Of a stretch of DNA of 64,000 nucleotides, positions 6,888-64,000 are shown in pieces. The notes below the pieces were generated by a model, which saw only the letters and a program-made list of their open reading frames with translations, was not told the DNA's origin and did not search any database. Origin of the DNA: an uncultured Gammaproteobacteria bacterium. Its GTDB lineage: Bacteria > Pseudomonadota > Gammaproteobacteria > Xanthomonadales > SZUA-38. The stretch is taken from positions 2,319 to 66,318 of the forward strand of contig CAZVYE010000001.1 in assembly GCA_964630895.1 (NCBI GenBank). The letters are read 5' to 3'. Position numbers and translations under genes: made by a program. Each line of letters starts with the position of its first letter. The stretch's first letter is position 1.

Positions 6888-7009
6888 CGCACACTCCAAA
6901 AGCTCTATATTTCAAAAGATTAGCTGCGAAACGCAGAAACCACACAACATCTACAGTGCGACACTATCGGTGCACTTGATGTGGTTAGCGTTGCAGCGAC
7001 AATTTGAAA

Positions 7010-14742: not shown

Positions 14743-14745
14743 GGA

Positions 14746-15576: not shown

Positions 15577-15578
15577 AA

Positions 15579-18117: not shown

Positions 18118-18150
18118 CAGTCGTCTCTTGCCTCTAAGCTAAAACATCGA

Positions 18151-20310: not shown

Positions 20311-20370
20311 CGGTTTAGTTCGGTTTCCTTTCGTCCGTAAAGAATAAGTCCAACGCTTTGCCCAGCGAGC

Positions 20371-21600: not shown

Positions 21601-21602
21601 GA

Positions 21603-22640
21603 TTAGCCTACCGACTCTTTGTATTTACGGTACTCGTCCCACAATTTTTCTCTAAGAACAGGGTCCGACTCTCGCATTGCCGCTTCGCGTAATTGCCTTG
21701 CCACAACATCGTCATCGCTACCATCACCGACATCCTGAGGAACTCTTTGCTTGTCGCGAGTACTGTCACCGCCCTGCGAGATCCAACCAGGTGTACCACT
21801 GGCGTCATCACCTTGACCGGATGCGCCACCACCTGAACTTGACTGGCTATCACCATCTACCATGACGAGGCCGCCATCTTCTCCGGTTTGGTCGGACCCA
21901 CCTTCTAACTCGGATCCTTCGGCGCCGCTTGGAGACTCGGAGCCGCCTTCCATATCTTCAGGGATATCCGCTGAGGCCAGCACCGTGATTTGACGCGCCA
22001 TTTCTCCGTCATGGGTTTGCAGCGTTTCAAGCAAGCGTGCATCAAGTGATGCCACATCGCCTGACTCCGCTTCTTCTCCATCTTCGCCGCCGGCAGGTCC
22101 TCCACCAAGCTCAGCGAGCTCTTCAGATTCAGCGCCACCGCCTGCGGACCCGTCACCGCCGTCTTCACCACCACCCGCAGGTTCTTCAGCACCTTCTTCG
22201 CCTCCTCCACCCGCATCGGCAACTGCATCGCTCTCGGCCTGCGCGCCTGATTCGGGTTCGGGTTCTAGCACTTCTAACTCACTTTCGGCACCACTGGCAC
22301 CGGCCTCAGCACTGGCTGAATCGCTTTCAGAACCACTTGGAATTGGCACTGGGATAGGTTCACCTGTGCCGCTGCTTGGTCGTTGACTGCCCTGGCTGCT
22401 GGAAGAGCTACTCGATGAACTGCTGGAAGACTGTGAGCCACTCTGGGACTGCTGTCCTCGACTCCTTGACTGCGAACTGCTGGAACTACTCGAACTACTG
22501 GAGCTGGAAGAACTGGAGCTAGAGGTCGGAGAAGGTGGTGTTGGCATGCCCGAAGAACTACTCGGTGAACTCATGCATCCACTAAGAACCAGCATGAATG
22601 TGGCCACCATCACAATCAGCCATTGCCCTAAAGTACGCAT
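21603..22640 (-). CDS. Lipoprotein with an extreme poly-Ser tract, a long acidic Gly/Glu/Ser-rich disordered region and a short conserved-looking C-terminal helix
   Basis: The ATG at 22640 is preceded by GGAGG. The lipobox is MLVLSGCMSS. The poly-Ser run is SSSSSSSSSSSSSSSSSQSRSRGQQSQSGSQSSSSSSSSSSSSQ, followed by GGGEEGAEEPAGGGEDGGDGSAGGG.... The C-terminus is DDVVARQLREAAMRESDPVLREKLWDEYRKYKESVG. Confidence 0.6.
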   Translation of the reverse strand: MRTLGQWLIVMVATFMLVLSGCMSSPSSSSGMPTPPSPTSSSSSSSSSSSSSSSSSQSRSRGQQSQSGSQSSSSSSSSSSSSQGSQRPSSGTGEPIPVPIPSGSESDSASAEAGASGAESELEVLEPEPESGAQAESDAVADAGGGGEEGAEEPAGGGEDGGDGSAGGGAESEELAELGGGPAGGEDGEEAESGDVASLDARLLETLQTHDGEMARQITVLASADIPEDMEGGSESPSGAEGSELEGGSDQTGEDGGLVMVDGDSQSSSGGGASGQGDDASGTPGWISQGGDSTRDKQRVPQDVGDGSDDDVVARQLREAAMRESDPVLREKLWDEYRKYKESVG

Positions 22641-22916
22641 TTTTCTACCTCCAGCTCTTTTCAGGTCAGAAACTTGGGCTACCAGATTAGTCTTACTTAG
22701 ATAGACCCTCAAGAGTCAACATTGGTTGCACAAGCTTGAATTTGATTATGTACTATATTTTTCGTATATCAAGAATGCGCAGACAAATGCGCACTTTGGG
22801 CAGCGTGGTCGGAGCGACTATATTCATTCCTTAAAAACACCATTCGCTGCAACGAAAATGGTTTTTTGACGGTCTACGCGTATGATGATACGGCAAACAA
22901 TGTGAGGGGATTTTGC
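22641..22916. promoter_or_regulatory. Divergent intergenic region, presumed to hold promoters for the nine-gene operon (leftward) and the lipoprotein pair (rightward)
   Basis: This 276-bp non-coding gap separates divergent genes. It contains an AT-rich stretch, ttgaatttgattatgtactatatttttcgtatatcaag. I did not map specific -35/-10 boxes with any confidence. Confidence 0.4.
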
Positions 22917-37832: not shown

Positions 37833-38104
37833 GCGGCCTGACTACCTGCAGCCAGATTCACGGCAGGAAACAGTCACTACTTCAACGAGGCATGAAGCAT
37901 GGCGGCTCAGGGGCAGGAGCTGCCATCTTGTCGCCACCGTGCATCAATAGCTCAAACAGCCACTGAGCGCCTTTTTTCTGGCGTTTACTCTGATCCAACC
38001 ATATACACTCGTCATACACTAGCCAAGCCCATAAACGAGCCCTTATAATGCCCGGTTACCTCGCGCCACCTGTGCGGGCAATTTGGAATTGGAAACAACG
38101 AGCT

Positions 38105-39451
38105 ATGGCTGGAAAACTTTATATAAAAACCAACGGATGCCAGATGAACGAGTACGACTCGACCAAAATGGCCGACGTTCTGGCGCAGTCGCATGGTTTA
38201 GAGTTGACGGATTCCGAAGCTGATGCGGATGTCATTCTGATCAATACCTGTTCCATTCGGGAAAAAGCCCAGGAAAAGGTATTCTCCCAGTTGGGCAGGT
38301 GGAAAAAACTCAAGCAGCAGGATGGGCGTCAGGTGGTGATAGGCGTTGGCGGTTGTGTCGCCAGCCAGGAAGGCGACGCCATCATAAAGCGCGCACCCTT
38401 CGTCGACATGGTGTTTGGTCCACAGACCCTGCATCGTCTACCAAAGATGTTGGAAGATGTGCGCTCTGGATCAAAAGCTGCTGTGGATATTTCATTTCCG
38501 GAGATCGAAAAATTCGACGCCCTGCCGGAGCCTCGCAAAGAAGGGCCTACGGCATTTGTTTCCGTGATGGAAGGCTGCAGCAAGTATTGTACTTTCTGTG
38601 TCGTCCCCTATACACGCGGCGAAGAAATTTCCCGGCCATTTGATGATGTAATTGCCGAGGTGGCCAGCTTAGCCGACCAGGGCGTGCGAGAAATCAATCT
38701 GCTTGGACAGAATGTCAACGCCTACAGAGGTCCGATGCACGACGGTAGCCACGCAGATCTGGCCCTGTTAATCGAGTACGTTGCAGCTATCGACGGCGTT
38801 GACCGAATTCGCTTTACCACATCGCATCCGGTGGAGTTCTCTGATCGATTGATTGAGGCCTATGCGAATGTGCCTGAGCTGGCGGATTACTTGCATCTAC
38901 CGGTGCAAAGTGGATCAGATCGCATCCTGAGCCAGATGAAGCGCGGCCACACAGCGATTGAATACAAACAGAAACTGCGCAAACTCCGGGAAGTCAGACC
39001 AAATATATCTCTGTCGTCTGATTTCATTATCGGATTTCCCGGAGAAACAGAGCGCGACTTTAATGACACAATGAAGCTGATCGAGGACATTCGCTTTGAC
39101 CAGTCATTTAGCTTCATCTACAGCCGTCGACCAGGCACTCCTGCTTCTAACCTGCCAGATGATGTGCCACTGGCAGAGAAAAAGCGTCGCCTGCAGCATT
39201 TGCAAACAACCATAAACGGGTTTGCGGCAGAAATTTCACAGAATATGGTTGGCACTACGCAGCGCATTTTGGTTGAGGGCACCTCTCGCAAGGATGAGCA
39301 GGAGTTGGCCGGACGAACCGAGAACAATCGGGTCGTCAACTTCGCCGGAAATGCTCGCTTGATCGGCGAGTTTGTAGACGTAGAAATCACCGAGGCGATG
39401 CCAAATTCGCTGCGCGGCCGAATTATCACGCGCGAATCCAGCGCGGCATAA
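38105..39451 (+). CDS. miaB: tRNA (N6-isopentenyl-A37) methylthiotransferase
   Basis: It has [19 protein letters not shown] and the radical-SAM motif [19 protein letters not shown], plus a C-terminal TRAM domain. The start at 38105 gives 448 aa. Confidence 0.95.
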
Positions 39452-39460
39452 AGGACTATT

Positions 39461-40462
39461 TTGAGCGAACAAGCAAAACGGGTAGAAGAGTTTTCTCTGG
39501 AACCCGAAAACAACGAACGGCTGGCAAATTTGAGTGGCCAGTTTGACGAGCACCTGCGTCAGATAGAGCAAAGACTGGGCGTCAACGTGGTAGCGCGAGG
39601 CGGCGTCTTTCGCATAAGCGGAGACGACAAACCGGTCCGCTCTGCGCGTCGTGTAGTGGAAGCAATGTACGCGGCAACAGCCAAGGAAGTGCTGACACCA
39701 GCGGAAGTTAATTTACACCTGCAGCAATCCGGCGTGGATGCTTTAGAGGATGCTGAGCAAGACGTCGACTCGGTAATAATCAAGACCAAGCGCGGGTTTA
39801 TCAAGGGTCGCGGGCCTAATCAAATTAGCTATCTGCAGCGCATCGCAGACAACGATATCAACTTTGGCATCGGGCCGGCTGGAACCGGCAAGACCTATTT
39901 GGCAGTGGCCTCTGCGGTTGCCGCGCTGCACGCAGAGCGCGTACAAAGACTGGTGCTGGTTCGACCGGCGGTAGAGGCCGGCGAAAGGCTTGGCTTTCTA
40001 CCTGGCGATTTGGCGCAAAAGGTAGATCCTTATTTGCGACCGCTGTATGACGCGCTGTACGAAATGCTCGGCTTCGACCAAGTGATGCGCCTAATCGATC
40101 GCAACGTAATTGAAATCGCGCCATTGGCGTTTATGCGTGGTCGCACCTTGAATGACGCATTTGTCATTCTTGATGAAGGTCAGAACACGTCCATCGAGCA
40201 GATGAAGATGTTCCTTACCCGTATTGGATTCGGGTCCACAGCGGTAATCACCGGCGACATAACGCAGGTAGACTTACCGCGTAATCAGACATCTGGTTTA
40301 AAGAATGCCATTGAAGTACTTAAAGACGTAGACGGCATCAGTTTCAGTTTCTTTTCTGCTCATGACGTAGTACGCCATCGGCTGGTCCAACGCGTAATTC
40401 AAGCGTACGACGCACATAGCAGCAGCGAGCGCAACAACAGTAAAGAGCATGACCAAAGCTGA
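39461..40462 (+). CDS. ybeZ: PhoH-family ATPase (YbeZ)
   Basis: It has the Walker A motif GPAGTGKTYLAV, plus FLPGDL..KVDPYLRPLYDAL, ILDEGQNT and ITGDITQVDLP. The start codon is TTG. Confidence 0.92.
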   Translation: MSEQAKRVEEFSLEPENNERLANLSGQFDEHLRQIEQRLGVNVVARGGVFRISGDDKPVRSARRVVEAMYAATAKEVLTPAEVNLHLQQSGVDALEDAEQDVDSVIIKTKRGFIKGRGPNQISYLQRIADNDINFGIGPAGTGKTYLAVASAVAALHAERVQRLVLVRPAVEAGERLGFLPGDLAQKVDPYLRPLYDALYEMLGFDQVMRLIDRNVIEIAPLAFMRGRTLNDAFVILDEGQNTSIEQMKMFLTRIGFGSTAVITGDITQVDLPRNQTSGLKNAIEVLKDVDGISFSFFSAHDVVRHRLVQRVIQAYDAHSSSERNNSKEHDQS

Positions 40463-40946
40463 TCCGCAAGAACCGGCTGATATCACTGTTCATGTGGATC
40501 GGGCAACACAAACTGAAACGCCAGATGATGCCCAGTTTCAACAATGGGTGGAAGCGGCTGTACGTGCGTTCCGGGCCTCAGCTCATGTGGACATTCGTAT
40601 CGTTGACAGGGATGAGTCGCAGAGCTTAAACGCGACGTATCGGGATAAAGACTATCCCACCAACGTGCTTTCTTTTCCCGCAGAATTAGCGCCGGAAGTA
40701 GAGCTACCTTTGCTGGGAGATTTGGCTTTGTGTGCCCCCGTGGTGACCTCAGAAGCGATAGCCCAGGAAAAGCAGGTAATGGACCATTGGGCGCATCTAA
40801 CGGTGCATGGCACGCTCCATCTTTTGGGCATGGATCATCAGCAGGATGAAGAAGCCAATGTGATGGAGGCTTTGGAAATCAAAATCCTATCTGGCCTGGG
40901 TATTGCAAACCCCTACTCAGACATCAGCGCACAAGGCGATATTTAG
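40449..40946 (+). CDS. ybeY: rRNA maturation endoribonuclease YbeY
   Basis: It has the zinc motif HLTVHGTLHLLGMDH, and its position after ybeZ is the conserved one. Confidence 0.93.
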   Translation: MTKADPQEPADITVHVDRATQTETPDDAQFQQWVEAAVRAFRASAHVDIRIVDRDESQSLNATYRDKDYPTNVLSFPAELAPEVELPLLGDLALCAPVVTSEAIAQEKQVMDHWAHLTVHGTLHLLGMDHQQDEEANVMEALEIKILSGLGIANPYSDISAQGDI

Positions 40947-41030: not shown

Positions 41031-41879
41031 ATGAACGACGACAATGCGAGTACCAGCGGTTCCGACCGCTCGTGGATTGGTCGCCTGACTCAGGCACTGT
41101 CCAGTAACGAGTTGCGGAACCGGGAAGAACTTCTGGAAACCTTACAAGCGGCCCTGCAAAACGATTTGTTGGACGCAGATACCTTCGGCATGATTGAGGG
41201 CGCTTTAGAAGTGTCCGAAATGCAGGTTCGGGACGCGATGATTCCCCGCGGCCAGATGGTCGTACTTGACCACGACGCACCGCTGGACGACATCCTTCCG
41301 ACTATCGTAGAAACGGGTCATTCCCGCTTTCCTGTAGTAAAAGATGATCGCGATGAGGTCGTCGGCATTCTCTTGGCAAAAGATTTGCTGCGCTTCTTCT
41401 TAGACGAAGAAAGAGAGCGTTTTCAGCTTACCGAAGTGATCAGACCTCCGGTCTTTATTCCGGAGAGCAAGCGCTTGAATGTATTGCTCAAAGACTTTCG
41501 ATCCAGTCGCAACCATATGGCGATAGTTGTCGATGAATTTGGTGGGGTAGCTGGTCTAATCACCATCGAAGACGTTTTGGAGGAAATTGTTGGGGAAATC
41601 GACGATGAGCACGATTTGCGCACCGCCGCCCATATTGTCAAGCACGACGGCAATCGGTTTACGGTAAACGCGCTTACGCCTATTGATGAGTTTAATCGCT
41701 ACTTTGACTCTACGTTTGACGATGAAGCCTTCGATACGATTGGCGGTCTGGTGACTGGTGAACTCGGCCGAGTTCCCGAACTGGGAGAGCGTCTGGAGTT
41801 GGAAAACTTTGCCATTGAGATTCTTCGCTCCGACACCCGTCGATTACAGCTCTTAGGCATTTCCAGATTGGATAAATAA
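41031..41879 (+). CDS. corC: CorC/HlyC-family magnesium/cobalt efflux-associated protein (CBS pair + CorC_HlyC)
   Basis: It has GALEVSEMQVRDAMIPRGQMV, the HSRFPV CBS pair, NHMAIVVDEFGGVAGLITIEDVLEEIVGEIDDEHD and a C-terminal transporter-associated domain. Confidence 0.92.
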   Translation: MNDDNASTSGSDRSWIGRLTQALSSNELRNREELLETLQAALQNDLLDADTFGMIEGALEVSEMQVRDAMIPRGQMVVLDHDAPLDDILPTIVETGHSRFPVVKDDRDEVVGILLAKDLLRFFLDEERERFQLTEVIRPPVFIPESKRLNVLLKDFRSSRNHMAIVVDEFGGVAGLITIEDVLEEIVGEIDDEHDLRTAAHIVKHDGNRFTVNALTPIDEFNRYFDSTFDDEAFDTIGGLVTGELGRVPELGERLELENFAIEILRSDTRRLQLLGISRLDK

Positions 41880-41883
41880 CTGC

Positions 41884-43044
41884 ATGCGCCACCAGCTGGT
41901 TATCGTTCTTTGGGCGCTTTTTCTGTTCGGGCATAGCACTTGGGCCCGCGCTGAGCTTCGCGCTGAGCTACTTACTATTGGCCCTGGGCCTGCATATTTC
42001 GAGCGCTTTGGCCATAATGCCATCGTGATTCGCAACACCGATACCGGTCAGGCCTTTTCCTATAACTTTGGCATTTTTGATTTTGAGCAGGAAAATTTCT
42101 TCGTCAATTTTCTTCGCGGCCATATGCTGTACAAACTTGCGGTATTCGATGCCGATAGAGAACTGGCGTTCTACCGATCCCAAGGCCGGGATATCACCCG
42201 GCAAAAGCTCAACCTGACAAACGATCAGGTACGTGCGCTTTTCAATGATCTGGCAAATCGCGCCAAACCAGAAAACGCTGAGTATCGCTACGACTACTTT
42301 CTGTCCAACTGCTCTACCCAGGTACGCGACGCGCTTGACCGAGCTACCGGCGGTCAGATTGCCCAGCAGTCTGAATTACCTGCGAGGCTTTCATTAAGAG
42401 ACCACACCCGTAGATTGACCGCACCGGTCCCATGGATGCATTACGGGATTCAGTTTGGCCTGGGACCAAAAGTCGATCAACCCACATCAAGATGGGATGA
42501 CTTCTTCGTTCCCATGGAATTACAACGAGCCGCTGAAACGATGATCTTGCGACGAGAGACGGGCGAAACTGTGCCGTTCGTGGCAGCCCAGGAGCAGCTG
42601 TTTACCGGCTCCAAATACCAAGAACAGATGCTGCCAGAGCCCAACTACTGGCTAGGATGGTTGATTGGTCTGCTGGTATTTGGCGCACTGTGGCTGCTCC
42701 CCCCGCGCCCAGCTAACTGGCTTGCTAACGGCATCCTGGTAGTTTGGGCAGTCGCCGGAACTTTTATGTTGGGTCTGTGGCTGTTTACCGAACACTGGCC
42801 TGCTGCGCGGAACGCCCACTTGCTGTTGGCATCCCCCCTGCTCTTAGCATTCTTCTCTACTAACCGGCTACTAAAGACAACTATTTTTGCGGCAATGTTA
42901 GCTGCCAGCATTTGGTTAGCCTTACCTTGGAACGAACAATCTGCGCCGGTTATTGCACCAATTTTGGGGACCACTATACTTAGCGCCGCTTGGAGGAAGA
43001 TTCGTGTGTCAACTTCTGACACTGTTGTCACGACATCGTCTTAA
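41884..43044 (+). CDS. DUF4105 (Lnb N-terminal periplasmic domain)-like membrane protein
   Basis: After the signal peptide comes LLTIGPGPAYFERFGHNAIVIRN...SYNFGIFDF...FLRGHMLYKLAVFD, which I recognise as the DUF4105 pattern. The C-terminal third has about 4-5 hydrophobic helices (WLGWLIGLLVFGALWLL, ILVVWAVAGTFMLGLWLF, ...). Confidence 0.6.
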   Translation: MRHQLVIVLWALFLFGHSTWARAELRAELLTIGPGPAYFERFGHNAIVIRNTDTGQAFSYNFGIFDFEQENFFVNFLRGHMLYKLAVFDADRELAFYRSQGRDITRQKLNLTNDQVRALFNDLANRAKPENAEYRYDYFLSNCSTQVRDALDRATGGQIAQQSELPARLSLRDHTRRLTAPVPWMHYGIQFGLGPKVDQPTSRWDDFFVPMELQRAAETMILRRETGETVPFVAAQEQLFTGSKYQEQMLPEPNYWLGWLIGLLVFGALWLLPPRPANWLANGILVVWAVAGTFMLGLWLFTEHWPAARNAHLLLASPLLLAFFSTNRLLKTTIFAAMLAASIWLALPWNEQSAPVIAPILGTTILSAAWRKIRVSTSDTVVTTSS

Positions 43045-43079
43045 TCACACTATACGCTTCGTCTCTTAAGGAGAGTCTT

Positions 43080-43823
43080 TTGAAGTCGTCCAGTCCATCC
43101 CGTGAACACACGCTAAAGAATAAAACGATATGGCATACGTTGAGGAACAGTTCTGTTTTTCAAATGGCCCTGTTTTTCACGCTTATTATGGCGACCCGAT
43201 CCAGTTTTGCAGATTGGAATCCCGTACCCACAGGCTCCATGAAGCCGACAATTCTGGAAGGCGATCTGATCTTTGTAAATCGCGCCGCTTATGATCTGAA
43301 GCTACCGTTTACGACCAAACATATTGCACGCTGGAGCGATCCGGAAAATGGCGATGTAGTAGTCGCATATTCGCCAGAGGACGGGCAACGCATCGTCAAG
43401 CGAGTCGTGGCGGGACCAGGAGATATGCTTTACGTAGACGGAAACCGGCTGGTAGTAAACGGAGCCAGACCAGACTATCAAGAGTATTCTCTCCCCGAGT
43501 TGGTCAATGAGCCACAGCACTGGCTATTTGAAGAGCACTGGGGCAGCCGAACGAATTTAATCATGCTGGGCACCCAGCCACGCAGCATTGCACCTAGAAT
43601 CTCCATGAAAGTCCCGGACAATCAATTTTTCCTGATGGGGGACCATCGCGATAATAGCTTTGATTCCCGCTTTTATGGCACCGTAGAACGCCAGCAAATT
43701 TTAGGCGAAGCCGTCGGCGTGATCGGATCTTTGGATATTAAGCAAAACTGGCAGCCGCGGTGGCGCCGCTTTTTCTCAGATTTAGAGTTTGAATCGGCCC
43801 GGTCAGGAGCACAGGATGGCTGA
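43080..43823 (+). CDS. lepB: Signal peptidase I (S26 family), short form
   Basis: The catalytic Ser box is PTGSMKPTILEGDLIFV, the Lys box is IVKRVVAGPGD and box E is GDHRDNSFDSRFYG. The start is a TTG 6 nt after AGGAG. This may be a second lepB paralog. Confidence 0.8.
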   Translation: MKSSSPSREHTLKNKTIWHTLRNSSVFQMALFFTLIMATRSSFADWNPVPTGSMKPTILEGDLIFVNRAAYDLKLPFTTKHIARWSDPENGDVVVAYSPEDGQRIVKRVVAGPGDMLYVDGNRLVVNGARPDYQEYSLPELVNEPQHWLFEEHWGSRTNLIMLGTQPRSIAPRISMKVPDNQFFLMGDHRDNSFDSRFYGTVERQQILGEAVGVIGSLDIKQNWQPRWRRFFSDLEFESARSGAQDG

Positions 43824-44769
43824 TCACATAAAGGTTGGGCTGGCACAGTGCTCGCCAGTGTATCTGGATCGGGAAAAGACCATCGCAAAAGCAACCAGAT
43901 GGATTGAGTCAGCGGGAGACAAGTCTTGCAATCTGGTAGTCTTCGGTGAAGCGTTCCTCCCTGCTTATCCATTTTGGCTCAGCGAAACCGGAGGAAGTCA
44001 GTTCGAGAACGCCGCGCAAAAACAGATGCATGGCCTGTACGCGGAGCAGTCCGTCAGCATTGCAGCAGGCCACCTGAAAGAGATACAAGCTGCCTGCGCT
44101 GATCATGAAATCGCTTGTTACCTGGGGTTTGTTGAGCGTGCCGACAATCGAGGCGGTCACTCACTATATTGTTCACTAACTTATATCGATCCCAAGGGAA
44201 ACATTCAATCCGTACACCGTAAACTGATGCCGACCTACGAAGAAAGGCTATGCTGGTCGATTGGCGACGGCCACGGGCTCAGAGTGCATCCGCTGGCAGG
44301 ATTTAATGTTGGCGGGTTGAACTGCTGGGAGAACTGGATGCCCATGGCAAGATCTGCATTGTATGGTCTGGGCGAGAATCTGCACGTGGCAGTCTGGCCT
44401 GGCAGTGAGCGTAATACTCGTGATATTACGCAATTTATGGCTAAAGAATCCCGTAGCTTTGTTGTATCCGTTTCCAATGTCATGAAGCGCGCTGACTTGC
44501 CCGCTATCGACCTCTTAGACGGCATGCGAGACACTGGCGACGAGTGGCTGAGTGACGGCGGTTCCTGCGTGGCAGCCCCCGACGGTAGTTGGATCATTGA
44601 GCCAACAATGCACTGCGAGGAGCTGTTTACCGCTGATCTAGATCTTGCTCAAGTGCGACGAGAACGACAAAATTTTGATCCCGCAGGACACTATGCGCGC
44701 GCCGATGTGATGCAGCTTCATGTTGATCGAACACGTCAAGCCACTGTGCGATACTCCGAAATTGACTAA
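43816..44769 (+). CDS. Nitrilase-family carbon-nitrogen hydrolase
   Basis: It has VVFGEAFLP (Glu), HRKLMPT (Lys) and GGLNCWENWMP (nucleophile Cys in the nitrilase-branch CWE motif). I prefer the start at 43816 (MADHIKVGLAQ). Confidence 0.85.
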   Translation: MADHIKVGLAQCSPVYLDREKTIAKATRWIESAGDKSCNLVVFGEAFLPAYPFWLSETGGSQFENAAQKQMHGLYAEQSVSIAAGHLKEIQAACADHEIACYLGFVERADNRGGHSLYCSLTYIDPKGNIQSVHRKLMPTYEERLCWSIGDGHGLRVHPLAGFNVGGLNCWENWMPMARSALYGLGENLHVAVWPGSERNTRDITQFMAKESRSFVVSVSNVMKRADLPAIDLLDGMRDTGDEWLSDGGSCVAAPDGSWIIEPTMHCEELFTADLDLAQVRRERQNFDPAGHYARADVMQLHVDRTRQATVRYSEID

Positions 44770-44796: not shown

Positions 44797-47127
44797 GTGA
44801 TTAGAGATCTTCTAGAACGACGCGTCATTCAGATAGTTGGTGTCTATTTAGGCGCTATTTTCGCTATGTTTGAGTTCACCGGGCTCATCGTCGAACGTTA
44901 CGCGCTTTCCGACAACTTAATTGACATGGTGCTTGTTGGCATGCTCTCGTTTCTGCCAACAGTGATACTGATTGCCTATTTTCACGGTAAGCCTGGGAAA
45001 GACCAATGGCACCGCAGCGAGAAGATCGCAATCCCACTGAACGTGGTAGTTTCTGCGGTACTACTGGGCGTGCTGTTCCGCGGCGAGGCAGTAGAAGCCG
45101 TAGCGCACAAAGTCGAAGTCACCGACCTGGACGGTTCCCAAGTTGTGGTGGAAATCCCCAAGGAAGCTTATGTCCGGCATTTGACCCTGTTCTTCTTTGA
45201 ACCCACCGAAAGCACGGAGAAATGGTTGGGATACGCGATCCCTGATCTCATCGGTACCCATTTGAATCGAGACCCCTCGGTAGATGCCGATAATCCGTTT
45301 AATGGCTATGGCCAGGGCTTCATGTGGCGACTAGAGCGGGCAGGATTCCCAGATGGTTTCGGCGTGGATATACCCACCATGCAGGCGCTGGCCCGAGAAA
45401 GAAGACAAGATTACTTTATCCATGGGGAAGTCTCCGGCACCGCCTCTGACGCCAGAATAACCGCTCGAATTTATCGCGTTGACCCGTTTCACCTGGTTGC
45501 AGAGCAGGTAGTGACCGGGGGCGACATCTTTGAAGAATCCGACGAACTGATTGACTTCATTAAACAGGAGACAGATGTCCAACGGGGGGCCAGCGGTCTC
45601 ATAGAGAACTTCTCTGTGGCTGAATTGCTCACAGACTCCATTCCGGCATACCGATCCTATATTGCCGGTCGCGCTGCCATGCTTTTTGGCAATCGCTACC
45701 ATGAGGCAATCGACCATTGGCTTGCTGCCATCGAGCAGGACTCGCGATTTCTTCACGCTTACACGCAAGCAGCATATGCCTATATCCAGCTTGGTCATAC
45801 CGACACAGCGATGACCATGTTTAGAGACGCGCAGCCCATGATGAACAAGCTGCCCCATCGTCAGCGCCTTGCAATCCAGGCACAAATGGAAATGATTCGA
45901 GAAAACCCCGAGCGCGCTCTGGCGATTTATGAAAGCTGGGTGGAGCAGTATCCAAATGATGTGGATGCCAGGGTATCTGCTGGCTTTGCCAATATGTACA
46001 ACTTCCAGAACCTGGAAGCCAGCGCGGAGCATTTTGAACGAGCCTTGGAAATGGATCCGCAGCGTGATTTTCTTTACCAGCACATTGTCAATATTTTCCG
46101 AGCCACTGATCAACCCGATCGTGCGAAGCACTTTATCGAAGAGTATATCGCACAGCGACCGGATGAATATGAAGGGTGGGTTACGCTCGGCGATATTGCT
46201 TTAACCCAAGGTGCGCTGGACGAAGCCCAGACGCACTACGAGGCCGGTGCACTCGCGGAGAACGATATGGTCACTCCGGAACTGCGTCTGGCCAAACTTG
46301 CGTTGAAGCGCGGCGACTTTGACGAGATGCGATTGCATTTCCAGAATGCAGCGTTTATTGCACAAGCACCCATTCAAGAAGCAACCATTCACGCAGAAAG
46401 AGCTTTCGTACACCGCACGCTTGGTCAGCCCAGCCAAGCCCTGGCTGCCCTGGAAGATTGGCATGCGATAACGGCCCAGTATCGCCAGAGCCTGGACACC
46501 TATTTTATGCTGTTCATGGAATTTGACCTGTACGTGCTGGCGGGAGAAGCAGACAAAGCCAAGGCAATTTTGCAAGACGTTGACTCCCAATTGGAAGCCG
46601 GTGGCTTTGGCTTTGTTGCCGATCACGGCCGAATGATCCTAGCCATAGCTCAAAACGATCCGCAGGTCGCGCAGATGGCGTTTGAACGCCTTAACTCTGC
46701 CGTACGTGATCGAGGCCGTGTGGACTTGTTTTATCTGGTTGAATGGGCAGAAGGAATAATCGCAGCGCTTCGCGACGACCATGATCTGGCCATTGCTTTG
46801 TTTCAAAAGGCTCTGGCAACCAATTCTGGTTCAATCCAGGCGGTTAACGACCTGGAATCACGTCCGGAGATATTGCGCGCCCTGGCCCAATCGTTGCTGA
46901 AATCCGGTCGACGTGACGAAGCGATTCTAGCCGCGCGAGAAGCGCTCATCTCCTGGCCAGCAGATCCGGATACAAACCTGATCCTCGCTCAGGCGTATTT
47001 TGAGGACAATCAAAAAACGTCCGCCCGGGATGCACTGAAGATAGCGCTTCAGGCTTGGTCAGAGGCAGAACCGGGTTATCCCCCACGCGAGGCAGCACTG
47101 CAGTTAGCGCAAAAGCTAGAGCTCTAA
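44797..47127 (+). CDS. Membrane-anchored TPR-repeat protein
   Basis: About 3 TM helices sit at the N-terminus (IQIVGVYLGAIFAMFEFTGLIV, MVLVGMLSFLPTVILIAYF, VVVSAVLLGVLF). A large helical-repeat region follows, with many TPR-like A..Y/W/F..A patterns. The start codon is GTG. Confidence 0.65.
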   Translation: MIRDLLERRVIQIVGVYLGAIFAMFEFTGLIVERYALSDNLIDMVLVGMLSFLPTVILIAYFHGKPGKDQWHRSEKIAIPLNVVVSAVLLGVLFRGEAVEAVAHKVEVTDLDGSQVVVEIPKEAYVRHLTLFFFEPTESTEKWLGYAIPDLIGTHLNRDPSVDADNPFNGYGQGFMWRLERAGFPDGFGVDIPTMQALARERRQDYFIHGEVSGTASDARITARIYRVDPFHLVAEQVVTGGDIFEESDELIDFIKQETDVQRGASGLIENFSVAELLTDSIPAYRSYIAGRAAMLFGNRYHEAIDHWLAAIEQDSRFLHAYTQAAYAYIQLGHTDTAMTMFRDAQPMMNKLPHRQRLAIQAQMEMIRENPERALAIYESWVEQYPNDVDARVSAGFANMYNFQNLEASAEHFERALEMDPQRDFLYQHIVNIFRATDQPDRAKHFIEEYIAQRPDEYEGWVTLGDIALTQGALDEAQTHYEAGALAENDMVTPELRLAKLALKRGDFDEMRLHFQNAAFIAQAPIQEATIHAERAFVHRTLGQPSQALAALEDWHAITAQYRQSLDTYFMLFMEFDLYVLAGEADKAKAILQDVDSQLEAGGFGFVADHGRMILAIAQNDPQVAQMAFERLNSAVRDRGRVDLFYLVEWAEGIIAALRDDHDLAIALFQKALATNSGSIQAVNDLESRPEILRALAQSLLKSGRRDEAILAAREALISWPADPDTNLILAQAYFEDNQKTSARDALKIALQAWSEAEPGYPPREAALQLAQKLEL

Positions 47128-47355: not shown

Positions 47356-47374
47356 ATTTTGGCGCTAACAGCGC

Positions 47375-48745
47375 CTATTTCTTAATCACATAACAGGGCT
47401 CGTAGCGAGTACCTGGAAGCTTCATACGATGCTGGCTCACAAACCGCTGTAGCAGCGCATCCATTCGTTCCATAATTTCCGCATCGCCTTGCAGCTCGAA
47501 CTTCCCGCGCGCAGCAATTCTGGCAATACCTTCTTCCTTCACGTTACCAGCAACAATGCCGGAGAAAGCCCTGCGTAAATCCGCTGCCAGTTTGTGGGGC
47601 GGTCGATCGCGCTCAAGCTGCAGCGCAGCCATATTGTCGTGACTTGGAATAAACGGTTCTTGAAACTCAGGGCGAATTGTTAATCCCCAATTGAAGAAGA
47701 ACGCGTCTTTTGTTTCACGACGATAGGCGCGAACATCGTCCATTCCCGCAGCCATAACGCGGGCCACAGCATCTGGATCTTCGACGATAATCTGATATCG
47801 CTTCGTAGCCTCATCCCCAAGGGCGAACTGCAGAAATTCATCAATCTGTTCGAAGTAATCTGCCGATTCGGCCGGCCCGGTAAATACCAGCGGGAACGGC
47901 ATGTTCTCGTTCTTTGGATGCATCAAGATGCCAAGCAGATAAAGAATTTCTTCTGCGGTACCTACGCCCCCCGGAAAAACCACGATACCGTGACCAACCC
48001 GAACAAAGGCCTCAAGGCGCTTCTCTATGTCCGGCATAATGACCAGGCGGTTGACGATAGGATTGGGTGACTCAGCGGCAATAATTCCTGGTTCAGAGAT
48101 GCCAATGTAGTCGCCATCTTCAATACGCTGTTTGCTATGGGCGATGGTTGCCCCCTTCATGGGGCCTTTCATTGCGCCGGGACCGCAACCAGTGCAAATA
48201 TTCAATCCACGCAGCCCCATCGCATAACCGACTTCTTTGGTGTAATCGTATTCTTCTCGAGAAATTGAATGCCCACCCCAGCAAACCACCAGTTTAGGAT
48301 CAGTTCCAGTTCTTAGAATCTCTGCATTGCGAAGGATGGAGAACACAAAGTCTGTGGTTTGCGTTTCGCCAATACCGCCATCATCTGCTGGCTGCAGATG
48401 CGTGTGCACGTAGACGATGTCGCGAAGGACGTCAAATAGCAGTTCGCGGACACCCTCAATAATCTTGCCATCAACAAATGCATTGTTGGGCGCATTGGTC
48501 AGTTCCAGCTTAATTCCTCGATCCTGCTGGATAACCTCGATCTTAAAATCTTCATAGGTTTCCAGCACCGCGCGCGCATCGTCCTGCTCCGAACCTGTAT
48601 TTAATACTGCCAACGCACATTTTCTGAGCAAATCGTGCATTCCCCCATGACCAGCCTGGCGCAGTGCGGCTACTTCCTGCTGGGACAAAAGAGCCAGTCC
48701 CCCTGTGGGTGATATGGACACCGTATTTGTATTCTTTCCTGTCAT
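47375..48745 (-). CDS. ppnN: Pyrimidine/purine nucleotide 5'-monophosphate nucleosidase (LOG-family, YgdH)
   Basis: The 456-aa protein is collinear with E. coli PpnN as I remember it: VVCWGGHSI, LNICTGCGPGAMKGPMKGA, PNPIVNRLVIMPDIEKRLEAFVR, FPGGVGTAEEILYLLGILM, LAADLRRAFSGIVAGNVKE and QHRMKLPG. Confidence 0.9.
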   Translation of the reverse strand: MTGKNTNTVSISPTGGLALLSQQEVAALRQAGHGGMHDLLRKCALAVLNTGSEQDDARAVLETYEDFKIEVIQQDRGIKLELTNAPNNAFVDGKIIEGVRELLFDVLRDIVYVHTHLQPADDGGIGETQTTDFVFSILRNAEILRTGTDPKLVVCWGGHSISREEYDYTKEVGYAMGLRGLNICTGCGPGAMKGPMKGATIAHSKQRIEDGDYIGISEPGIIAAESPNPIVNRLVIMPDIEKRLEAFVRVGHGIVVFPGGVGTAEEILYLLGILMHPKNENMPFPLVFTGPAESADYFEQIDEFLQFALGDEATKRYQIIVEDPDAVARVMAAGMDDVRAYRRETKDAFFFNWGLTIRPEFQEPFIPSHDNMAALQLERDRPPHKLAADLRRAFSGIVAGNVKEEGIARIAARGKFELQGDAEIMERMDALLQRFVSQHRMKLPGTRYEPCYVIKK

Positions 48746-55124: not shown

Positions 55125-58100
55125 GATGCGTTGGCTAAGCGCTCCGCTTCTGCTACATCCACTGAGACCATACGCGATACGCCCGGTTCACGCATGGTCA
55201 CGCCACTGAGCTGGTGTGCTATCTCCATAGTGATTTTATTGTGTGTCACAAATAAAAACTGCACCGTTTCAGACATCTCTTGAACCAGATTGGAGAAACG
55301 TCCTACGTTAGCATCATCCAGAGGTGCGTCCACTTCGTCCAGCATACAGAACGGAGCCGGATTGAGCTGGAAAATGGAAAACACGAATGACACGGCAGTC
55401 AACGCTTTTTCCCCGCCCGAAAGCAAGTGGATATTTGACACGCGTTTGCCTGGTGGGCGCGCCATGATGGCAACTCCAGCAGACAGCAAATCATCACCAA
55501 CCAATTCCAGATAGGCGTGGCCGCCGCCGAATAACCGGGGAAACAGCTCCTGCACCCCTGTATTGACCCGGTCAAAGGTTTCCTTGAACTGAGTTCTGGT
55601 TTGTCGATCAATCTTACCAATTGCCGCCTCTAAGGTCGTGAGTGCGGTCTCAAGATCTTCGTTCTGCGCGTCCAGGTAAGACTTACGTTCTTCCTGTTCT
55701 TTAAATTCGTCGATAGCGGCCATGTTTACCGGCTCTAGTCGCACGATCTTGCGATCCAAGTCCTCAAGATCACGCTGCCACTTATCGGGACTAGCGCCAT
55801 CTTCCAGATCACCCAACAGTGCGTTTGCGTCGGCCTCTACTTCTGCCAGCCGTTCTTCCACACTTTGCAGGCGTACTTTGAAGCTTCGTTCGCCAATTTG
55901 GGCTTTTCCAGGCTCTCGCGCAGATTCTGCAGTCCACCATCAATTTGCTGGCGCTGCTGTTCGGATTGACGCAGACCTGCATTGATTTGATCTTGCTTGC
56001 CCCGCGCTTCGGTAAGCCGCTCTTCCACGGCAATTTTCTGTTCCAACAGGGCTTTCAGACGCTGTTGCTCACCTTCCATGGGCTCATCGGACTGATTCAA
56101 TGAATCCAGCAGCTGCGCTCGCTTCGATTCAATCTGCGCAATCTGGCTTTGCATGCGCTGCAGTCCTTGTTCGGTTGAACGCAATGAAGCCTTCCGGGAC
56201 TCCAGCTCGATAGCCTGCTTTTGCGCCGCTTCCCTCGCTTCTCTTGCTTTGCCGCGCACTTGATCTCGTTGCGCCACCAAATAACGGCGCTGTTGCTCCA
56301 GCTCAGCTCGCTGACGCTCCAGATTAGCCATCTTGTCAACTGATTCTTCCAAGCGCAGTCTGGATGCTTTGACTGTCTCAGACTCTGCGGCAATTTGTTC
56401 TTGCAGCGCAGCTGACTCTTCGGCAATACGCTTATTGCGCTGGGACAGCTGTTCTATGCGTGCTTTCTTGTTTGCCAACTGGCCCGCCAGTTCGGTAACG
56501 CGACGGTGCTGCATATTGACCTGGGCCAAAGCTTCTTCGCGCTGCTTTTCTGACTCGGCGAGTTCCTTTTCGGCAGTTTGCAGCGTTTCCGCCAGTGATT
56601 CGCCCTGCTCGCGCAGTTCATCTACCGACTCAGCCAGCTGCGCAATTTCTCGTTCACGAGCAAGCACACTGTCCTGACCCTCACCGCTCGGGCGCAGGCG
56701 CAGCCATCCGTTACCCACACAGATACCTTCCGGCGTGATGTAATATTCATGCGCTGCAAGTTGATTTGTTTGGCTAAGCGCCGCATCAACGTTTGCTACG
56801 GGAATAATGCCAGTAAGACGATCAACGATCGCCTTTGGCGCCTCTACCTTCGCAGCCAATCCCGAATCGCCCCGCACTTGCGCCCCGGCAGCTACCAAAC
56901 TCAAATCGAGATCGGGGGGAAGCGTTGCTCCAGCCAATAGCTTGTCCGGACTTTCTACTACCAGCGCCTCCAGCAAACCGGCCAAAGCGGTTTCTACCGC
57001 AATTTCCCAACCGCCATCGACTTTCATGCTGTTTGCCAGACGTTTGGCCTTCTCCAGATCGTGCTCAGAAATCCAGGCACCGGTGGTGTCTGACCCCGAC
57101 TCCAGCGCCGCTTGCTGCAACGCCTGCAGAGAACTTAATCGGCCCTTCGCCTGTTGGTACTGTTCCCGCAGGCCGTTCAATGTTTCCCGTTGATTACGCA
57201 CCGTTTCGTTTTGCGTGATCAACCCCGACTTGACGTCGGCCAGCTGTCGATCCAGCTCATCAGCTTTGCTTTGCTCTATCTCGTGGGTCTCCGACAGCGC
57301 GACCTCTTGCTCCCGCAGCTGCGCCAACTCTGATTCAGGCGTTTCCTGCTTAAGCCTCTCCAGACGCGTATTTTGCTCATTGAGTTGGCGATCCAGGTGA
57401 TCAATCTTTGTTTTTTCGACTTCCGCGGTGCGCTGGTAATTACCCGTTTCACTAGAAAATGCGTCCCAACGCTCCTGCCAATCCGCCAGCGCCTGCTCAG
57501 CATCTTGCAGCGTATCTGCGGTAATGGTTTCTTCTTCTCGCGCCAACTCTACGTTGGGCGTGAGCGTTTCAATGGCCTGACGTAGCTCTTCGGATTGCAC
57601 GCGATCCAGGGCGATATGTTCTTGTAGTTCTTGCCAGTGCTGATCCGCTTCGCGATGCTCTCGCTCTTTCTGTTCACGCATATCGCGGCGATGGGCAATG
57701 TCCTGCTCAATACGCGCAATGTCACCGCCTACCGCATACAACTCGGACTGAATGGCATTGACCACTTCGGTGGCCTCCACCTGCTGACTGCGCTGATCTT
57801 CCAGTTCTGCTTCCAATGCTCGCAGTTTCGAAACCTGCGCTTCCAGGTCATTTTCAGCACGGGCAACTTCGCGATCGTGCTGTTCCAGGGTTTCTTTGAG
57901 CGCACGCCACTTGAGCGCCAGAAGCTGGGATTCTTTGAGCCGGTACTCGGTCTTTAATAGCTTGTAACGTTCCGCCTGTTTGGCTTGTCGATTCAAATGG
58001 GCAAGCTGCTTTTCTACTTCTTCGCGCAGATCACTCAATCGATCCAGGTTTTCTCTGGTGTGGCGAATTCGATGCTCTGTCTCGCGTCGACGCTCTTTGT

Positions 58101-58617
58101 ATTTAGAGATACCGGCAGCTTCTTCCAGGTGGTGTCGCAAATCTTCCGGCTTGGCTTCCACGATCTGGGAAATCATGCCCTGCTCAATAATGGAGTAACT
58201 GCGAGGTCCTAATCCGGTGCCTAAAAAGATATCGGTGATATCTCGCCGCCGACAGCGTGTGCCGTTCAGGAAATAAGCAGATTGACCATCTCGGCTGACC
58301 TGCCGCTTAATGGATATTTCTGAAAAGCTGGCAAACTCCCCCTGCACGGTCCCATCGGAATTGTCGAATATCAACTCCACCGTAGCAGTGCCAACTGGTT
58401 TGCGCGCGCTGGATCCGCTAAAAATAACGTCAGACATGGATTCGCCACGCAGTAGTCGCGCAGACGACTCGCCCATAACCCAACGTACGGCGTCAATAAT
58501 ATTGGACTTTCCACAGCCGTTTGGTCCCACCACACCAATTAGATTGCTTGGCATGTGAAACGTAGTTGGGTCGACAAAGGACTTAAATCCCGCCAGTTTT
58601 ATGGTTTTCAGACGCAT
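55121..58617 (-). pseudogene. smc: Chromosome segregation protein SMC, reading frame broken once (apparent 1-nt deletion in a homopolymer)
   Basis: The N-part ORF (55837-58617) starts MRLKTIKLAGFKSFVDPT...GPNGCGKSNIIDA (Walker A). The C-part ORF (55121-55861) carries [10 protein letters not shown] (signature) and [13 protein letters not shown] (Walker B). The two frames overlap at 55837-55861. Adding one T to the T4 run at 55904-55907 yields the continuous sequence ...[32 protein letters not shown].... Confidence 0.85.
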
Positions 58618-61551: not shown

Positions 61552-62409
61552 GTGACCGAACCAACCAACCAATCAGGCAAACCCGCACAGGAAGAAATGC
61601 CGTTTGCGGTCGTTATGGGTCAGCCAGTTGCCGAGCTGCCTACAGATTTATACATTCCGCCCGATGCGCTGGAAGTGTTTCTTGAGGCTTTCGAGGGTCC
61701 TCTGGACTTACTGTTGTATCTCATTCGGCGCCAAAATCTGGATATTCTGGACATTCCAATTGCGCAAATAACCGACCAGTACATTGAGTACATCGAGTTA
61801 ATGCAGGAAATGCGGTTCGAGTTAGCAGCAGAATACTTACTGATGGCGGCCATACTGGCCGAAATTAAGTCTCGAATGCTGCTGCCAAAGCCAAAACAGG
61901 ATCAGGAAGAAGAAGGCGATCCGCGCGCCGAATTGGTTAGAAGATTACAAGAATACGAGCGCTACAAGAAGGCCGCACAGGATTTAGATGAGCTGCCCCG
62001 GCACGAACGCGACTTTACGCTGGTAGATGCGTTTGTAACTGACCGCTCAACCGTTACCGTGCCTCCCGAAGTGGATCTAAAGGAATTGCTGATCGCATTT
62101 CGTGACGTTCTCAGTCGAGCTGAGCTTTACACCCATCACGCCGTGGAAATGGAGCCGTTGTCGGTACGAGAACGAATGAGCCGAATCATGAAGATGCTGG
62201 CACCGGGCAAATTCGTGTCCTTTAGCGAGCTGTTTGACCCCGAAGAAGGCCGCATGGGCGTCGTGGTTTCATTTTTGGCAATATTGGAAATGATCAAAGA
62301 GCGCATCGTTGAAGTTGCCCAAAACGAACCTTTTGCCCCAATCTATATAAAAACGCTGGCTGGTGACGAACCAGACGCAGATACGGACGTAAATCTGGTA
62401 ACAAGTTGA
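61552..62409 (+). CDS. scpA: Segregation and condensation protein A (kleisin)
   Basis: It has FEGPLDLLLYLIRRQNLDILDIPIAQITDQYIEYI and LAAEYLLMAAILAEIKSRMLLP. The start codon is GTG. Confidence 0.9.
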   Translation: MTEPTNQSGKPAQEEMPFAVVMGQPVAELPTDLYIPPDALEVFLEAFEGPLDLLLYLIRRQNLDILDIPIAQITDQYIEYIELMQEMRFELAAEYLLMAAILAEIKSRMLLPKPKQDQEEEGDPRAELVRRLQEYERYKKAAQDLDELPRHERDFTLVDAFVTDRSTVTVPPEVDLKELLIAFRDVLSRAELYTHHAVEMEPLSVRERMSRIMKMLAPGKFVSFSELFDPEEGRMGVVVSFLAILEMIKERIVEVAQNEPFAPIYIKTLAGDEPDADTDVNLVTS

Positions 62410-62410
62410 T

Positions 62411-63217
62411 ATGGAAATCGGAGCGTTAAAAAACATCCTCGAAGCGGCCCTGCTGGCAGCAGACGAACCATTGAACTTGAATCAAATGGAAGGCCTCTTT
62501 GCAGAAGATGCGACGCCAGGACATAAGAACCTAAGGTCTGCGCTAGCCAAGTTGGAAGCAGACTACGAGGGCCGTGGCATTGAATTGAAAGAAGTGGCCA
62601 GCGGCTGGCGTATTCAGGTCCGGGAAAGTATCCATCCCTGGGTGTCCAAACTGTGGCAACAGCGGCCGCCTCGGTATTCCCGCGCACTGTTGGAGACTCT
62701 GGCTATCATCGCATATCGCCAGCCCATAACCCGCGGCGAAATCGAAGAAATCCGCGGCGTTGCCGTAAGCACCAACATCATGCGGGTGCTGCAAGAGCGT
62801 GAGTGGGTGCGCGTGGTTGGTCAGCGAGACGTACCCGGTAAGCCTTCGTTATTTGGCACCACCAAAAAGTTCCTGGACTATTTTAATTTGCGGCGACTGG
62901 ATGAGTTACCCACGCTCGCGGAAATCCGTGAAATCGGCGACATTGATCCAGAGCTACGCTTTGCAGACGAAGCGAGCAAAACCCAGCCCCCCGTGACCGC
63001 CAGCGCAGACGCCGGCAATGCAACAGAAGAAAACGAACATGACGCAGCAGAGCGACAATCCGTGGACGAATCGCAAGACGAAGTCCAGCACCAAGAAGAA
63101 CGAAAGCAATCCGAAGACAACCGAGAAAAAGAAGAGTCCCAGCGACAAACGGGGGAAGGACTCAAGGCCGACAAATCAGCGCAGCAAGTACAAGCCGCGG
63201 GGTCCGAAGAAGAGTAA
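62411..63217 (+). CDS. scpB: Segregation and condensation protein B, with a long acidic C-terminal tail
   Basis: It has LKNILEAALLAADEPL, SGWRIQVRE, RYSRALLETLAIIAYRQPITRGEIEEIRGV and GRRDVPGKPSLFGTTKKFLDYFNL. The final 75 aa or so are E/Q/D/K-rich. Confidence 0.9.
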   Translation: MEIGALKNILEAALLAADEPLNLNQMEGLFAEDATPGHKNLRSALAKLEADYEGRGIELKEVASGWRIQVRESIHPWVSKLWQQRPPRYSRALLETLAIIAYRQPITRGEIEEIRGVAVSTNIMRVLQEREWVRVVGQRDVPGKPSLFGTTKKFLDYFNLRRLDELPTLAEIREIGDIDPELRFADEASKTQPPVTASADAGNATEENEHDAAERQSVDESQDEVQHQEERKQSEDNREKEESQRQTGEGLKADKSAQQVQAAGSEEE

Positions 63218-64000
63218 GGCTGCAACAGTCGGCCTGGATAAACCCAGTCAAAAGGATGGTGAGCGCCTGCAAAAACTCATGGCGGGCATGGGGCTTGGTT
63301 CGCGCAGGGGTCTAGAAACCGAAATTGCCGCGGGCAATGTCTACCTGAACGGCGAAAAAGCCACTCTCGGCACCCGTGGAGACGAAGGCGACTTGGTGGA
63401 ATTCAAGGGCTCCCGCTATCAAGTGGTGAGCGACGCCAGCACCAGCAGCCAAGTCATTCTTTATAACAAGCCCGAAGGTGAAATTTGCACCCGCAATGAC
63501 CCGGAAGGTCGAAAAACGGTGTTCGAGAAGCTACCCCCTCTGCGCTCACAGCGCTGGATAGCGATTGGCCGGCTGGACATCAACACTGCCGGTCTGCTGC
63601 TATTTACCACGGATGGCGAATTGGCAAACGCCATGATGCACCCCAGCACCGGAGTGGACCGCGAGTACGCCTGCCGGGTGCACGGCGAGGTCACTGACGA
63701 AATTGTTGAAAAACTCAAAAGCGGTGTGGAGTTAGAAGACGGCCCAGCTCATTTTACCGACGTGGTGGATTCGGGTGGCAGCGGCCAGAATCGCTGGTTC
63801 CACGTGGTGCTCATGGAAGGTAGAAATCGCGAAGTACGGCGGCTATGGCAGGCTGTGGGCCTCGAGGTCTCCCGCCTTAAGCGGGTGCGGTATGGCGCAG
63901 TATTCATGCCCTCTCGGCTCAAACGAGGCCAATGGGAGAATATGTCACCCCGGGACATTCGCATCTTACGCGAGGACGCGGGCTTGAAGGCGCGCACCGA
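63018..64000 (+). CDS. rluB: 23S rRNA pseudouridine synthase RluB (partial; 3' end beyond the window), with a Lys/Arg-rich N-terminal extension overlapping scpB
   Basis: I translated this frame myself. The S4 domain is GERLQKLMAGMGLGSRRGLETEIAAGNVYLNGEKATLG. It also has VILYNKPEGEICTRNDPEGRKTVFE, the catalytic motif IAIGRLDINTAGLLLFTTDGELAN, and REYACRVHG. The frame opens after the TGA at 62994. The only in-frame ATGs upstream of the S4 domain are at 63018 and 63039, and there is no GTG or TTG in between. Confidence 0.8.
   Translation, partial: MQQKKTNMTQQSDNPWTNRKTKSSTKKNESNPKTTEKKKSPSDKRGKDSRPTNQRSKYKPRGPKKSKAATVGLDKPSQKDGERLQKLMAGMGLGSRRGLETEIAAGNVYLNGEKATLGTRGDEGDLVEFKGSRYQVVSDASTSSQVILYNKPEGEICTRNDPEGRKTVFEKLPPLRSQRWIAIGRLDINTAGLLLFTTDGELANAMMHPSTGVDREYACRVHGEVTDEIVEKLKSGVELEDGPAHFTDVVDSGGSGQNRWFHVVLMEGRNREVRRLWQAVGLEVSRLKRVRYGAVFMPSRLKRGQWENMSPRDIRILREDAGLKART

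Follow-up and report, generated by a model that had tools for sequence, protein, structure and literature searches.

What has taken the place of lnt, the gene for apolipoprotein N-acyltransferase (Lnt), in a gammaproteobacterial operon where corC is followed by a gene of another family? The N-acylation of lipoproteins governs their Lol-dependent delivery to the outer membrane as well as TLR2 recognition, and Lnt is a pursued antibiotic target. The question is raised by a 64-kb stretch of DNA from an uncultured gammaproteobacterium (assembly GCA_964630895.1, contig CAZVYE010000001.1), hereafter the window, in which a gene at 41884-43044 encodes a protein of the DUF4105 type directly downstream of corC. 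All coordinates given below are positions in the window unless a survey locus is named. We find that this protein is homologous over its full length, though distantly, to Lnb, the enzyme that N-acylates lipoproteins in Bacteroides, that its gene has taken the slot of lnt and that it has, most likely, taken over the job of Lnt as well.

The gene downstream of corC and its product

The genes upstream of the Lnb-like gene were identified with Pfam and NCBIfam models. Together with it they form a co-directional run on the forward strand, in which the start of the Lnb-like gene follows the corC stop codon by 4 nt:

38048-39451, + strand, miaB (tRNA methylthiotransferase), which opens the conserved run; TIGR01574, 7.6e-188, 624.9 bits, above cut-off
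39461-40462, + strand, phoH/ybeZ-like ATPase; PF02562 PhoH, 1.7e-93
40449-40946, + strand, ybeY (rRNA maturation RNase); TIGR00043, 3.4e-42, above cut-off
41031-41879, + strand, corC/ybeX (CBS pair plus CorC_HlyC domain); PF03471, PF00571 and PF21917; NF011675 CorC, 2.1e-82
41884-43044, + strand, Lnb-like protein of 386 residues, predicted lipoprotein N-acyltransferase in the lnt position; PF13387, NF051878, AlphaFold2 model, TseH fold match

The protein carries the domain that Pfam at present names 'Lnb N-terminal periplasmic domain' (PF13387, 'Lnb_N'; residues 27-167, 2e-21, 76.8 bits against a cut-off of 22.2). Residues 18-324 match positions 22-332 of the 394 in NF051878, 'lipoprotein N-acyltransferase Lnb' (3.2e-50, 171.1 bits). 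The equivalog cut-off of that profile is 550 bits, and nine corC-linked relatives of the window protein score likewise below it (119-165 bits). Because 171 bits stands against 550, the window protein is best classed, as judged by profile score, with a full-length but divergent Lnb subfamily that falls outside the NCBI equivalog. UniRef names several of its homologues 'lipoprotein N-acyltransferase Lnb domain-containing protein', and corC-linked relatives in Xanthomonadales are annotated as 'DUF4105 domain-containing protein' or 'Lnb domain-containing protein'. Scans with Pfam and NCBIfam models found neither a CN_hydrolase (PF00795) nor an Lnt (TIGR00546) signature in the protein.

An AlphaFold2 model built from 50 homologues (mean predicted local distance difference test score 93.2, predicted template modelling score 0.88) places an N-terminal helix at residues 2-18 and an alpha/beta domain at 25-240, followed by C-terminal helices at 255-271, 274-301, 311-324, 328-346 and 357-382. 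The resulting layout is:

41884-41952, + strand, N-terminal hydrophobic helix, residues 1-23, signal peptide or signal anchor; model helix 2-18 and Kyte-Doolittle hydrophobic segment
41956-42603, + strand, periplasmic alpha/beta domain, residues 25-240, Lnb_N/DUF4105 with a permuted NlpC/P60 fold; contains His44, Asn61 and Cys143
42646-43029, + strand, C-terminal membrane domain, residues 255-382, five helices in the AlphaFold2 model; invariant polar residues

A putative cleavage site between TWA and RA was read by eye in the N-terminal segment. The family model of the Lnb membrane domain, PF25221 (5TMH_Lnb), matches the window protein weakly at the expected place (residues 253-346, E 0.27, 11.7 bits against a cut-off of 25.2), and homologues that align over the full length match it clearly. 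The initial annotation of this DNA had described a signal peptide, a DUF4105 domain and a polytopic C-terminus without nitrilase-fold features of Lnt, and had linked DUF4105 to Lnb. The PF13387 match, the five modelled C-terminal helices and the missing CN_hydrolase and Lnt matches bear out that description, and the link is correct by the present Pfam name and by the description of BT_4364 (PMC11573676). It had also called for profile and structure comparisons with Lnb. The profile matches given above lead to that family, and the fold match described below is the one reported for Lnb.

Lnb of Bacteroides (BT_4364 / BF9343_0945) consists of a DUF4105 periplasmic domain and five transmembrane helices (Armbruster et al. 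2024, PMC11573676). Its putative triad is Asn66-His49-Cys148, and C148 is needed for N-acylation (PMC11573676). The counterparts in the window protein would be His44 (codon 42013-42015), Asn61 (42064-42066) and Cys143 (42310-42312), for the spacings are identical to those of H49, N66 and C148 in BT_4364, at 17 residues from His to Asn and 99 from His to Cys. Conservation was read in alignments of 24 and 50 sequences. His44 and Cys143 are invariant in both, while Asn61 is invariant among the 50 sequences and is Ser in Wenzhouxiangella only. His304, Asn310, Pro318 and Gln352 of the membrane domain are invariant columns as well.

Searching the PDB with the model using Foldseek returned TseH (6v98) as the first hit (probability 1.00, E 8.6e-3, target-normalised TM-score 0.47), followed by CLN5. 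TseH is the top structural neighbour of Lnb too (PMC11573676). A sequence-profile search of the PDB gave chance matches to membrane proteins only.

The window protein shares with Bacteroides Lnb the order of a periplasmic DUF4105/Lnb_N domain and a five-helix membrane domain, here as predicted by the model, within about 390 residues, the His/Asn/Cys spacing and the best structural neighbour. It differs from it in sequence, being only distantly related and barely matched by PF25221, and in its setting, a gammaproteobacterial miaB-phoH-ybeY-corC operon; its activity is predicted. TseH and Tox-Act1 are type VI secretion effectors of the permuted NlpC/P60 kind and have the same catalytic fold and His/Cys core, but they are soluble toxins found in type VI secretion, Rhs or PAAR contexts, whereas the window protein has a predicted membrane domain and is encoded in a housekeeping operon. 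LnsA/LnsB of Staphylococcus aureus likewise relies on an NlpC/P60-type enzyme for lipoprotein N-acylation (PMC11573676), but is described as a two-protein system without detectable sequence homology. With Lnt (TIGR00546; eight transmembrane helices plus CN_hydrolase) the window protein has in common the genomic slot after corC and presumably the same reaction through a cysteine thioester intermediate; fold and topology are unrelated, and there is zero sequence similarity.

Occupants of the position after corC

Using the window CorC as query against species-representative genomes, we surveyed 80 gammaproteobacterial corC loci over up to 10 kb per side. A canonical Lnt is encoded at 69 of them, mostly directly after corC and at several loci set off from it by one or more genes; one of these survey proteins was checked as TIGR00546 (293 bits). 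At nine of the 80 an Lnb-like gene lies either directly after corC or no more than about 900 nt behind it. These nine comprise two Lysobacterales metagenome-assembled genomes (MAGs), four Wenzhouxiangella, a complete Wenzhouxiangellaceae chromosome (OZ245999.1), an unclassified proteobacterium and a complete Algiphilus chromosome. Not one of the 80 loci carries both genes, and two (L028 and L040) have neither within 10 kb. The Lnb-like gene stands where lnt is conserved, and at that position the two genes exclude each other. The positional replacement of lnt suspected in the initial annotation is thus real, and it is recurrent.

Context look-ups of database homologues extended this pattern, with the same order of corC and Lnb-like gene in Tahibacter amnicola (complete chromosome CP104694.1), a Dokdonella MAG, a contig from marine sediment and Pseudoxanthomonas, which has the whole miaB-phoH-ybeY-corC run ahead of the Lnb-like gene. 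No Lnt was found within 6-10 kb in five further contexts of this kind beyond the 80 loci. A Gemmatimonadota homologue has another genomic context. The synteny survey that had been proposed for the region downstream of corC shows that the swap is not confined to the source organism, and Lysobacterales/Xanthomonadales-type MAGs and Wenzhouxiangellaceae share the arrangement. As to other genes near the Lnb-like gene, a DsbA-family gene follows it in the Dokdonella MAG (L082, 9307-9969) and lolB lies about 5 kb downstream of it on the sediment contig (L083, 7796-8413). Both neighbours belong to envelope biogenesis, but they do not recur from locus to locus.

PhoH, YbeY and CorC sequences from 72 loci and the window were concatenated, and the neighbour-joining tree built from them unites the window and eight of the nine Lnb-bearing loci in one clade (bootstrap 92/100), with the window as sister to those eight, which group together at 94/100. 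Algiphilus (L043, NZ_OZ252280.1) falls outside that clade, beside a Lnt-bearing Salinisphaerales genome (L021), and monophyly of all nine Lnb-bearing loci with the window was rejected (bootstrap 1/100). Since Algiphilus has the corC-Lnb-like order yet groups with an Lnt-bearing genome, a second and independent swap at the same slot is suggested, which could have come about by transfer of an Lnb-like gene to this position. When the Salinisphaerales Lnt was used as query, Lnts came back from Nevskiales relatives of Algiphilus (Solimonas, Stenotrophobium and Panacagrimonas) and from Salinisphaera but none from Algiphilus, a weak negative that is consistent with an independent swap. The tree is most simply read as a single old swap that was passed down in a large clade, the window lineage among its members, together with at least one independent swap. 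Among species representatives the best match to the window CorC has 60% identity, and the Lnb-like protein, MiaB and PpnN of the window are singletons at 90%-identity clustering.

That DUF4105 and Lnt displace each other has been reported for three genomic contexts (PMC12994826). The S3 and S4 tables of that work hold PhoH-YbeY-CBS/CorC-DUF4105 contigs of Xanthomonadales/Xanthomonadaceae and DUF4105 proteins of Lysobacter and Dyella. The displacement idea is consequently not new in its general form, having been computationally inferred in print, and the window adds one unusually divergent example. The window protein belongs to the same family as these corC-linked Xanthomonadales proteins (37-43% identity, full alignment), with the same position after corC and within the same clade of the flanking-gene tree. 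Unlike them, it is the most divergent member seen, from a lineage sister to the other eight, and its gene has signal peptidase I (S26) and nitrilase genes downstream that are mostly lacking in relatives. We found no explicit statement in the papers retrieved on Lnb, Lnt and DUF4105 that 'Lnt-less' Xanthomonadales use Lnb.

Probable displacement of lnt and the alternatives

The window itself contains no Lnt, as judged by Pfam scans of all its large open reading frames (ORFs) and by tblastn with three Lnt sequences, and we infer that lnt is absent from the rest of the genome too. Reports from the wider clade agree with this. In Xanthomonas campestris B100 no Lnt gene was found, and diacyl anchors were hence modelled (Furlanetto and Divne, PMC10368991), and the Lnt BUSCO marker is missing in X. 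vasicola, X. albilineans and Xylella fastidiosa (PMC7828034, Table 1). Given the strict either/or at the corC slot and these Lnt-less reports, we favour a true non-orthologous displacement. The initial annotation had left the choice between displacement and a second acylation route, and the first of these is now well supported.

As an Lnb-type enzyme, the protein would be exported and anchored via its five C-terminal helices, so that the papain-like domain would face the periplasm at the inner membrane. Asn61 would orient His44, and His44 would activate Cys143, which would form a thioester with an acyl chain drawn from a membrane phospholipid. The chain would then be handed to the S-diacylglyceryl cysteine that Lgt and LspA leave behind, at its free alpha-amino group, and the outcome would be triacylated lipoproteins entering the Lol pathway.

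With more reserve, we lean towards a broader proposal, that a large gammaproteobacterial clade, extending from the deep-branching window lineage via Wenzhouxiangellaceae to Xanthomonadales, with the plant pathogens Xanthomonas and Xylella included, N-acylates its lipoproteins solely with an Lnb-type enzyme, that lipoproteins are triacylated throughout, and that at least two swaps have occurred at corC. If this holds, lipoproteins would be triacylated after all, against the assumption of diacyl anchors in X. campestris, and models of Lol proteins that rest on such anchors would need revisiting. The Lnb family would be functional outside Bacteroidota, and Lnt-directed inhibitors would miss the bacteria of this clade, relatives of major plant pathogens among them.

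Several observations weigh against displacement by a working N-acyltransferase. The score against NF051878 lies far under the equivalog level, so that the specificity of this divergent subfamily could differ from that of Bacteroides Lnb, and PF25221, the membrane-domain model, has no significant match in the window protein. His44, Asn61 and Cys143 were equated with the BT_4364 residues by spacing and invariance only. In the papers retrieved on Lnb, Lnt and DUF4105 we found no experimental test of a proteobacterial Lnb-family protein. The search for lnt covered 64 kb of the source genome, which leaves room for a copy elsewhere, and lnt does not invariably lie beside corC, L028 and L040 carrying neither gene nearby. 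For the broader proposal, the carriers of Lnb-like (DUF4105) genes seen here are Pseudoxanthomonas, Lysobacter, Dyella and Xanthomonadaceae, and Xanthomonas and Xylella are not among them. With the Pseudoxanthomonas homologue as query, 2,889 relatives reached E <= 1e-20, and the 120 matches listed were all Pseudoxanthomonas-like, with no named Xanthomonas orthologue.

One alternative is a different chemistry, to which the low score against the Bacteroidota Lnb model lends some weight. Proteobacterial DUF4105 proteins might be phospholipases, or acyltransferases that act on lysophospholipids or on another envelope lipid, and lipoproteins would then stay diacylated. Enzymes of the sister clades of DUF4105, Tox-Act1 and TseH, share its His/Cys core and are toxic or target lipids (PMC12994826), and both the diacyl anchors modelled for X. 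campestris, where Lnt was not found, and the tolerance of some bacteria to the loss of Lnt (PMC10368991) would fit such a chemistry. Against it stand the finding that the Lnb-like gene takes precisely the place of lnt within a conserved operon, with co-occurrence never seen in the surveyed loci, and the retention of the full-length Lnb architecture, predicted membrane domain included. There is also no secretion-system or toxin/immunity context around the gene, and the same context pattern has led others to infer an acyltransferase (PMC12994826). We regard a different chemistry as unlikely.

A second alternative is that a canonical lnt lies outside the window and that the Lnb-like protein is an auxiliary or specialised acyltransferase, serving a subset of lipoproteins or particular conditions. 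The 64-kb span examined and the loose linkage of lnt to corC would allow this, as several survey loci have lnt displaced from corC and two have neither gene within 10 kb. An auxiliary enzyme does not, however, account well for a swap at exactly the lnt slot, nor for the finding that the two genes occur together within 6-10 kb in 0 of 80 + 6 loci. Genome-wide absence of Lnt has moreover been published for members of the wider clade (PMC10368991, PMC7828034), and Lnb is the sole N-acyltransferase in Bacteroides (PMC11573676). We consider this second route improbable and retain displacement of lnt by the Lnb-like gene as the preferred explanation.

Neighbouring genes and the remainder of the window

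Two genes follow the Lnb-like gene on the same strand, separated from it and from each other by 35 nt and -8 nt, respectively:

43080-43823, + strand, signal peptidase I (S26), short form, 247 residues; PF10502, 7e-34; TIGR02227, 130.8 bits
43816-44769, + strand, nitrilase-type CN_hydrolase, soluble, neighbour outside the system; PF00795, 4.3e-32; TIGR04048, 1.3e-48

The S26 gene starts with TTG at 43080, 6 nt behind AAGGAG (43068-43073), and encodes a genuine signal peptidase I with a TIGR02227 score above the cut-off of 47 and the motifs SMKPT (Ser53), KRV (Lys107) and GDHRDNS. The initial annotation had recognised this short-form enzyme by SMKPT, KRV and a strong AGGAG-TTG start, correctly so, and had further taken it as a pointer to protein export and maturation, for which support is weak. 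Signal peptidase I processes non-lipoprotein precursors, not lipoproteins. Of 14 other corC-linked loci, only the Wenzhouxiangellaceae chromosome (L058) has an S26 gene after the Lnb-like gene, about 280 nt downstream and 47% identical in product to that of the window; it is absent there in the other 13. With these substrates and a single locus in 14, we treat the adjacency as weak evidence and as probably incidental.

The account of the ORF run in the initial annotation holds through the signal peptidase but passed over the nitrilase gene. Its probable start is the ATG at 43816, with AGGAG 6 nt ahead, which produces an 8-nt overlap across the S26 stop codon. The product is a free-standing, full-length nitrilase that matches the Nit6803-type family model TIGR04048 under its equivalog cut-off, and no hydrophobic segment or export signal was found in 43816-44769. 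A nitrilase-type CN_hydrolase is striking beside a gene that replaces Lnt, itself a CN_hydrolase enzyme. We rejected it as a remnant of Lnt, as it is soluble and full-length and has no tblastn similarity to the three Lnt queries.

That the Lnb-like protein, signal peptidase I and nitrilase form a dedicated export and maturation cassette is very improbable, since the co-directional, tightly spaced arrangement and the orthologous S26 in L058 are set against an adjacency of S26 in one and of the nitrilase in none of the 14 other loci, a signal peptidase that leaves lipoproteins unprocessed and a nitrilase without an export signal.

The co-directional run is closed by a gene at 44797-47127 (+ strand) for a 776-residue protein whose N-terminal region is hydrophobic and which has many tetratricopeptide repeats (TPR). 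Between it and the convergent ppnN lies a terminator-like hairpin (47361-47375), the sole convincing one on the + strand. The promoter and terminator scan gave a signal no better than in shuffled sequence, and the window contains no Rfam families or tRNAs.

Elsewhere in the window, a long cluster occupies 11299-22712 on the - strand, in which five ORFs have no Pfam match at 1e-5:

11299-12363, 12303-13412, 13375-14742, 20371-21600 and 21603-22712, - strand, the five cluster ORFs without a Pfam match at 1e-5
14746-15576, - strand, MotA/ExbB-type channel protein
16000-18117, - strand, protein with PEGA repeats and an FGE-sulfatase domain
18151-20310, - strand, TPR protein

A CusCBA-like heavy-metal efflux operon of the resistance-nodulation-division type lies at 1252-6899 (- strand) and encodes an AcrB-family pump, an adaptor of the HlyD_D23 type that also has a heavy-metal-binding domain, and an outer-membrane factor. 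At 55837-58617 (- strand), adjoining ligA, is an ORF for an SMC_N-type ATPase of only 926 residues. A strong excursion in AT skew (-0.23) at 56001-58000 falls on this ORF, and a second excursion (+0.19) is seen at 62001-64000.

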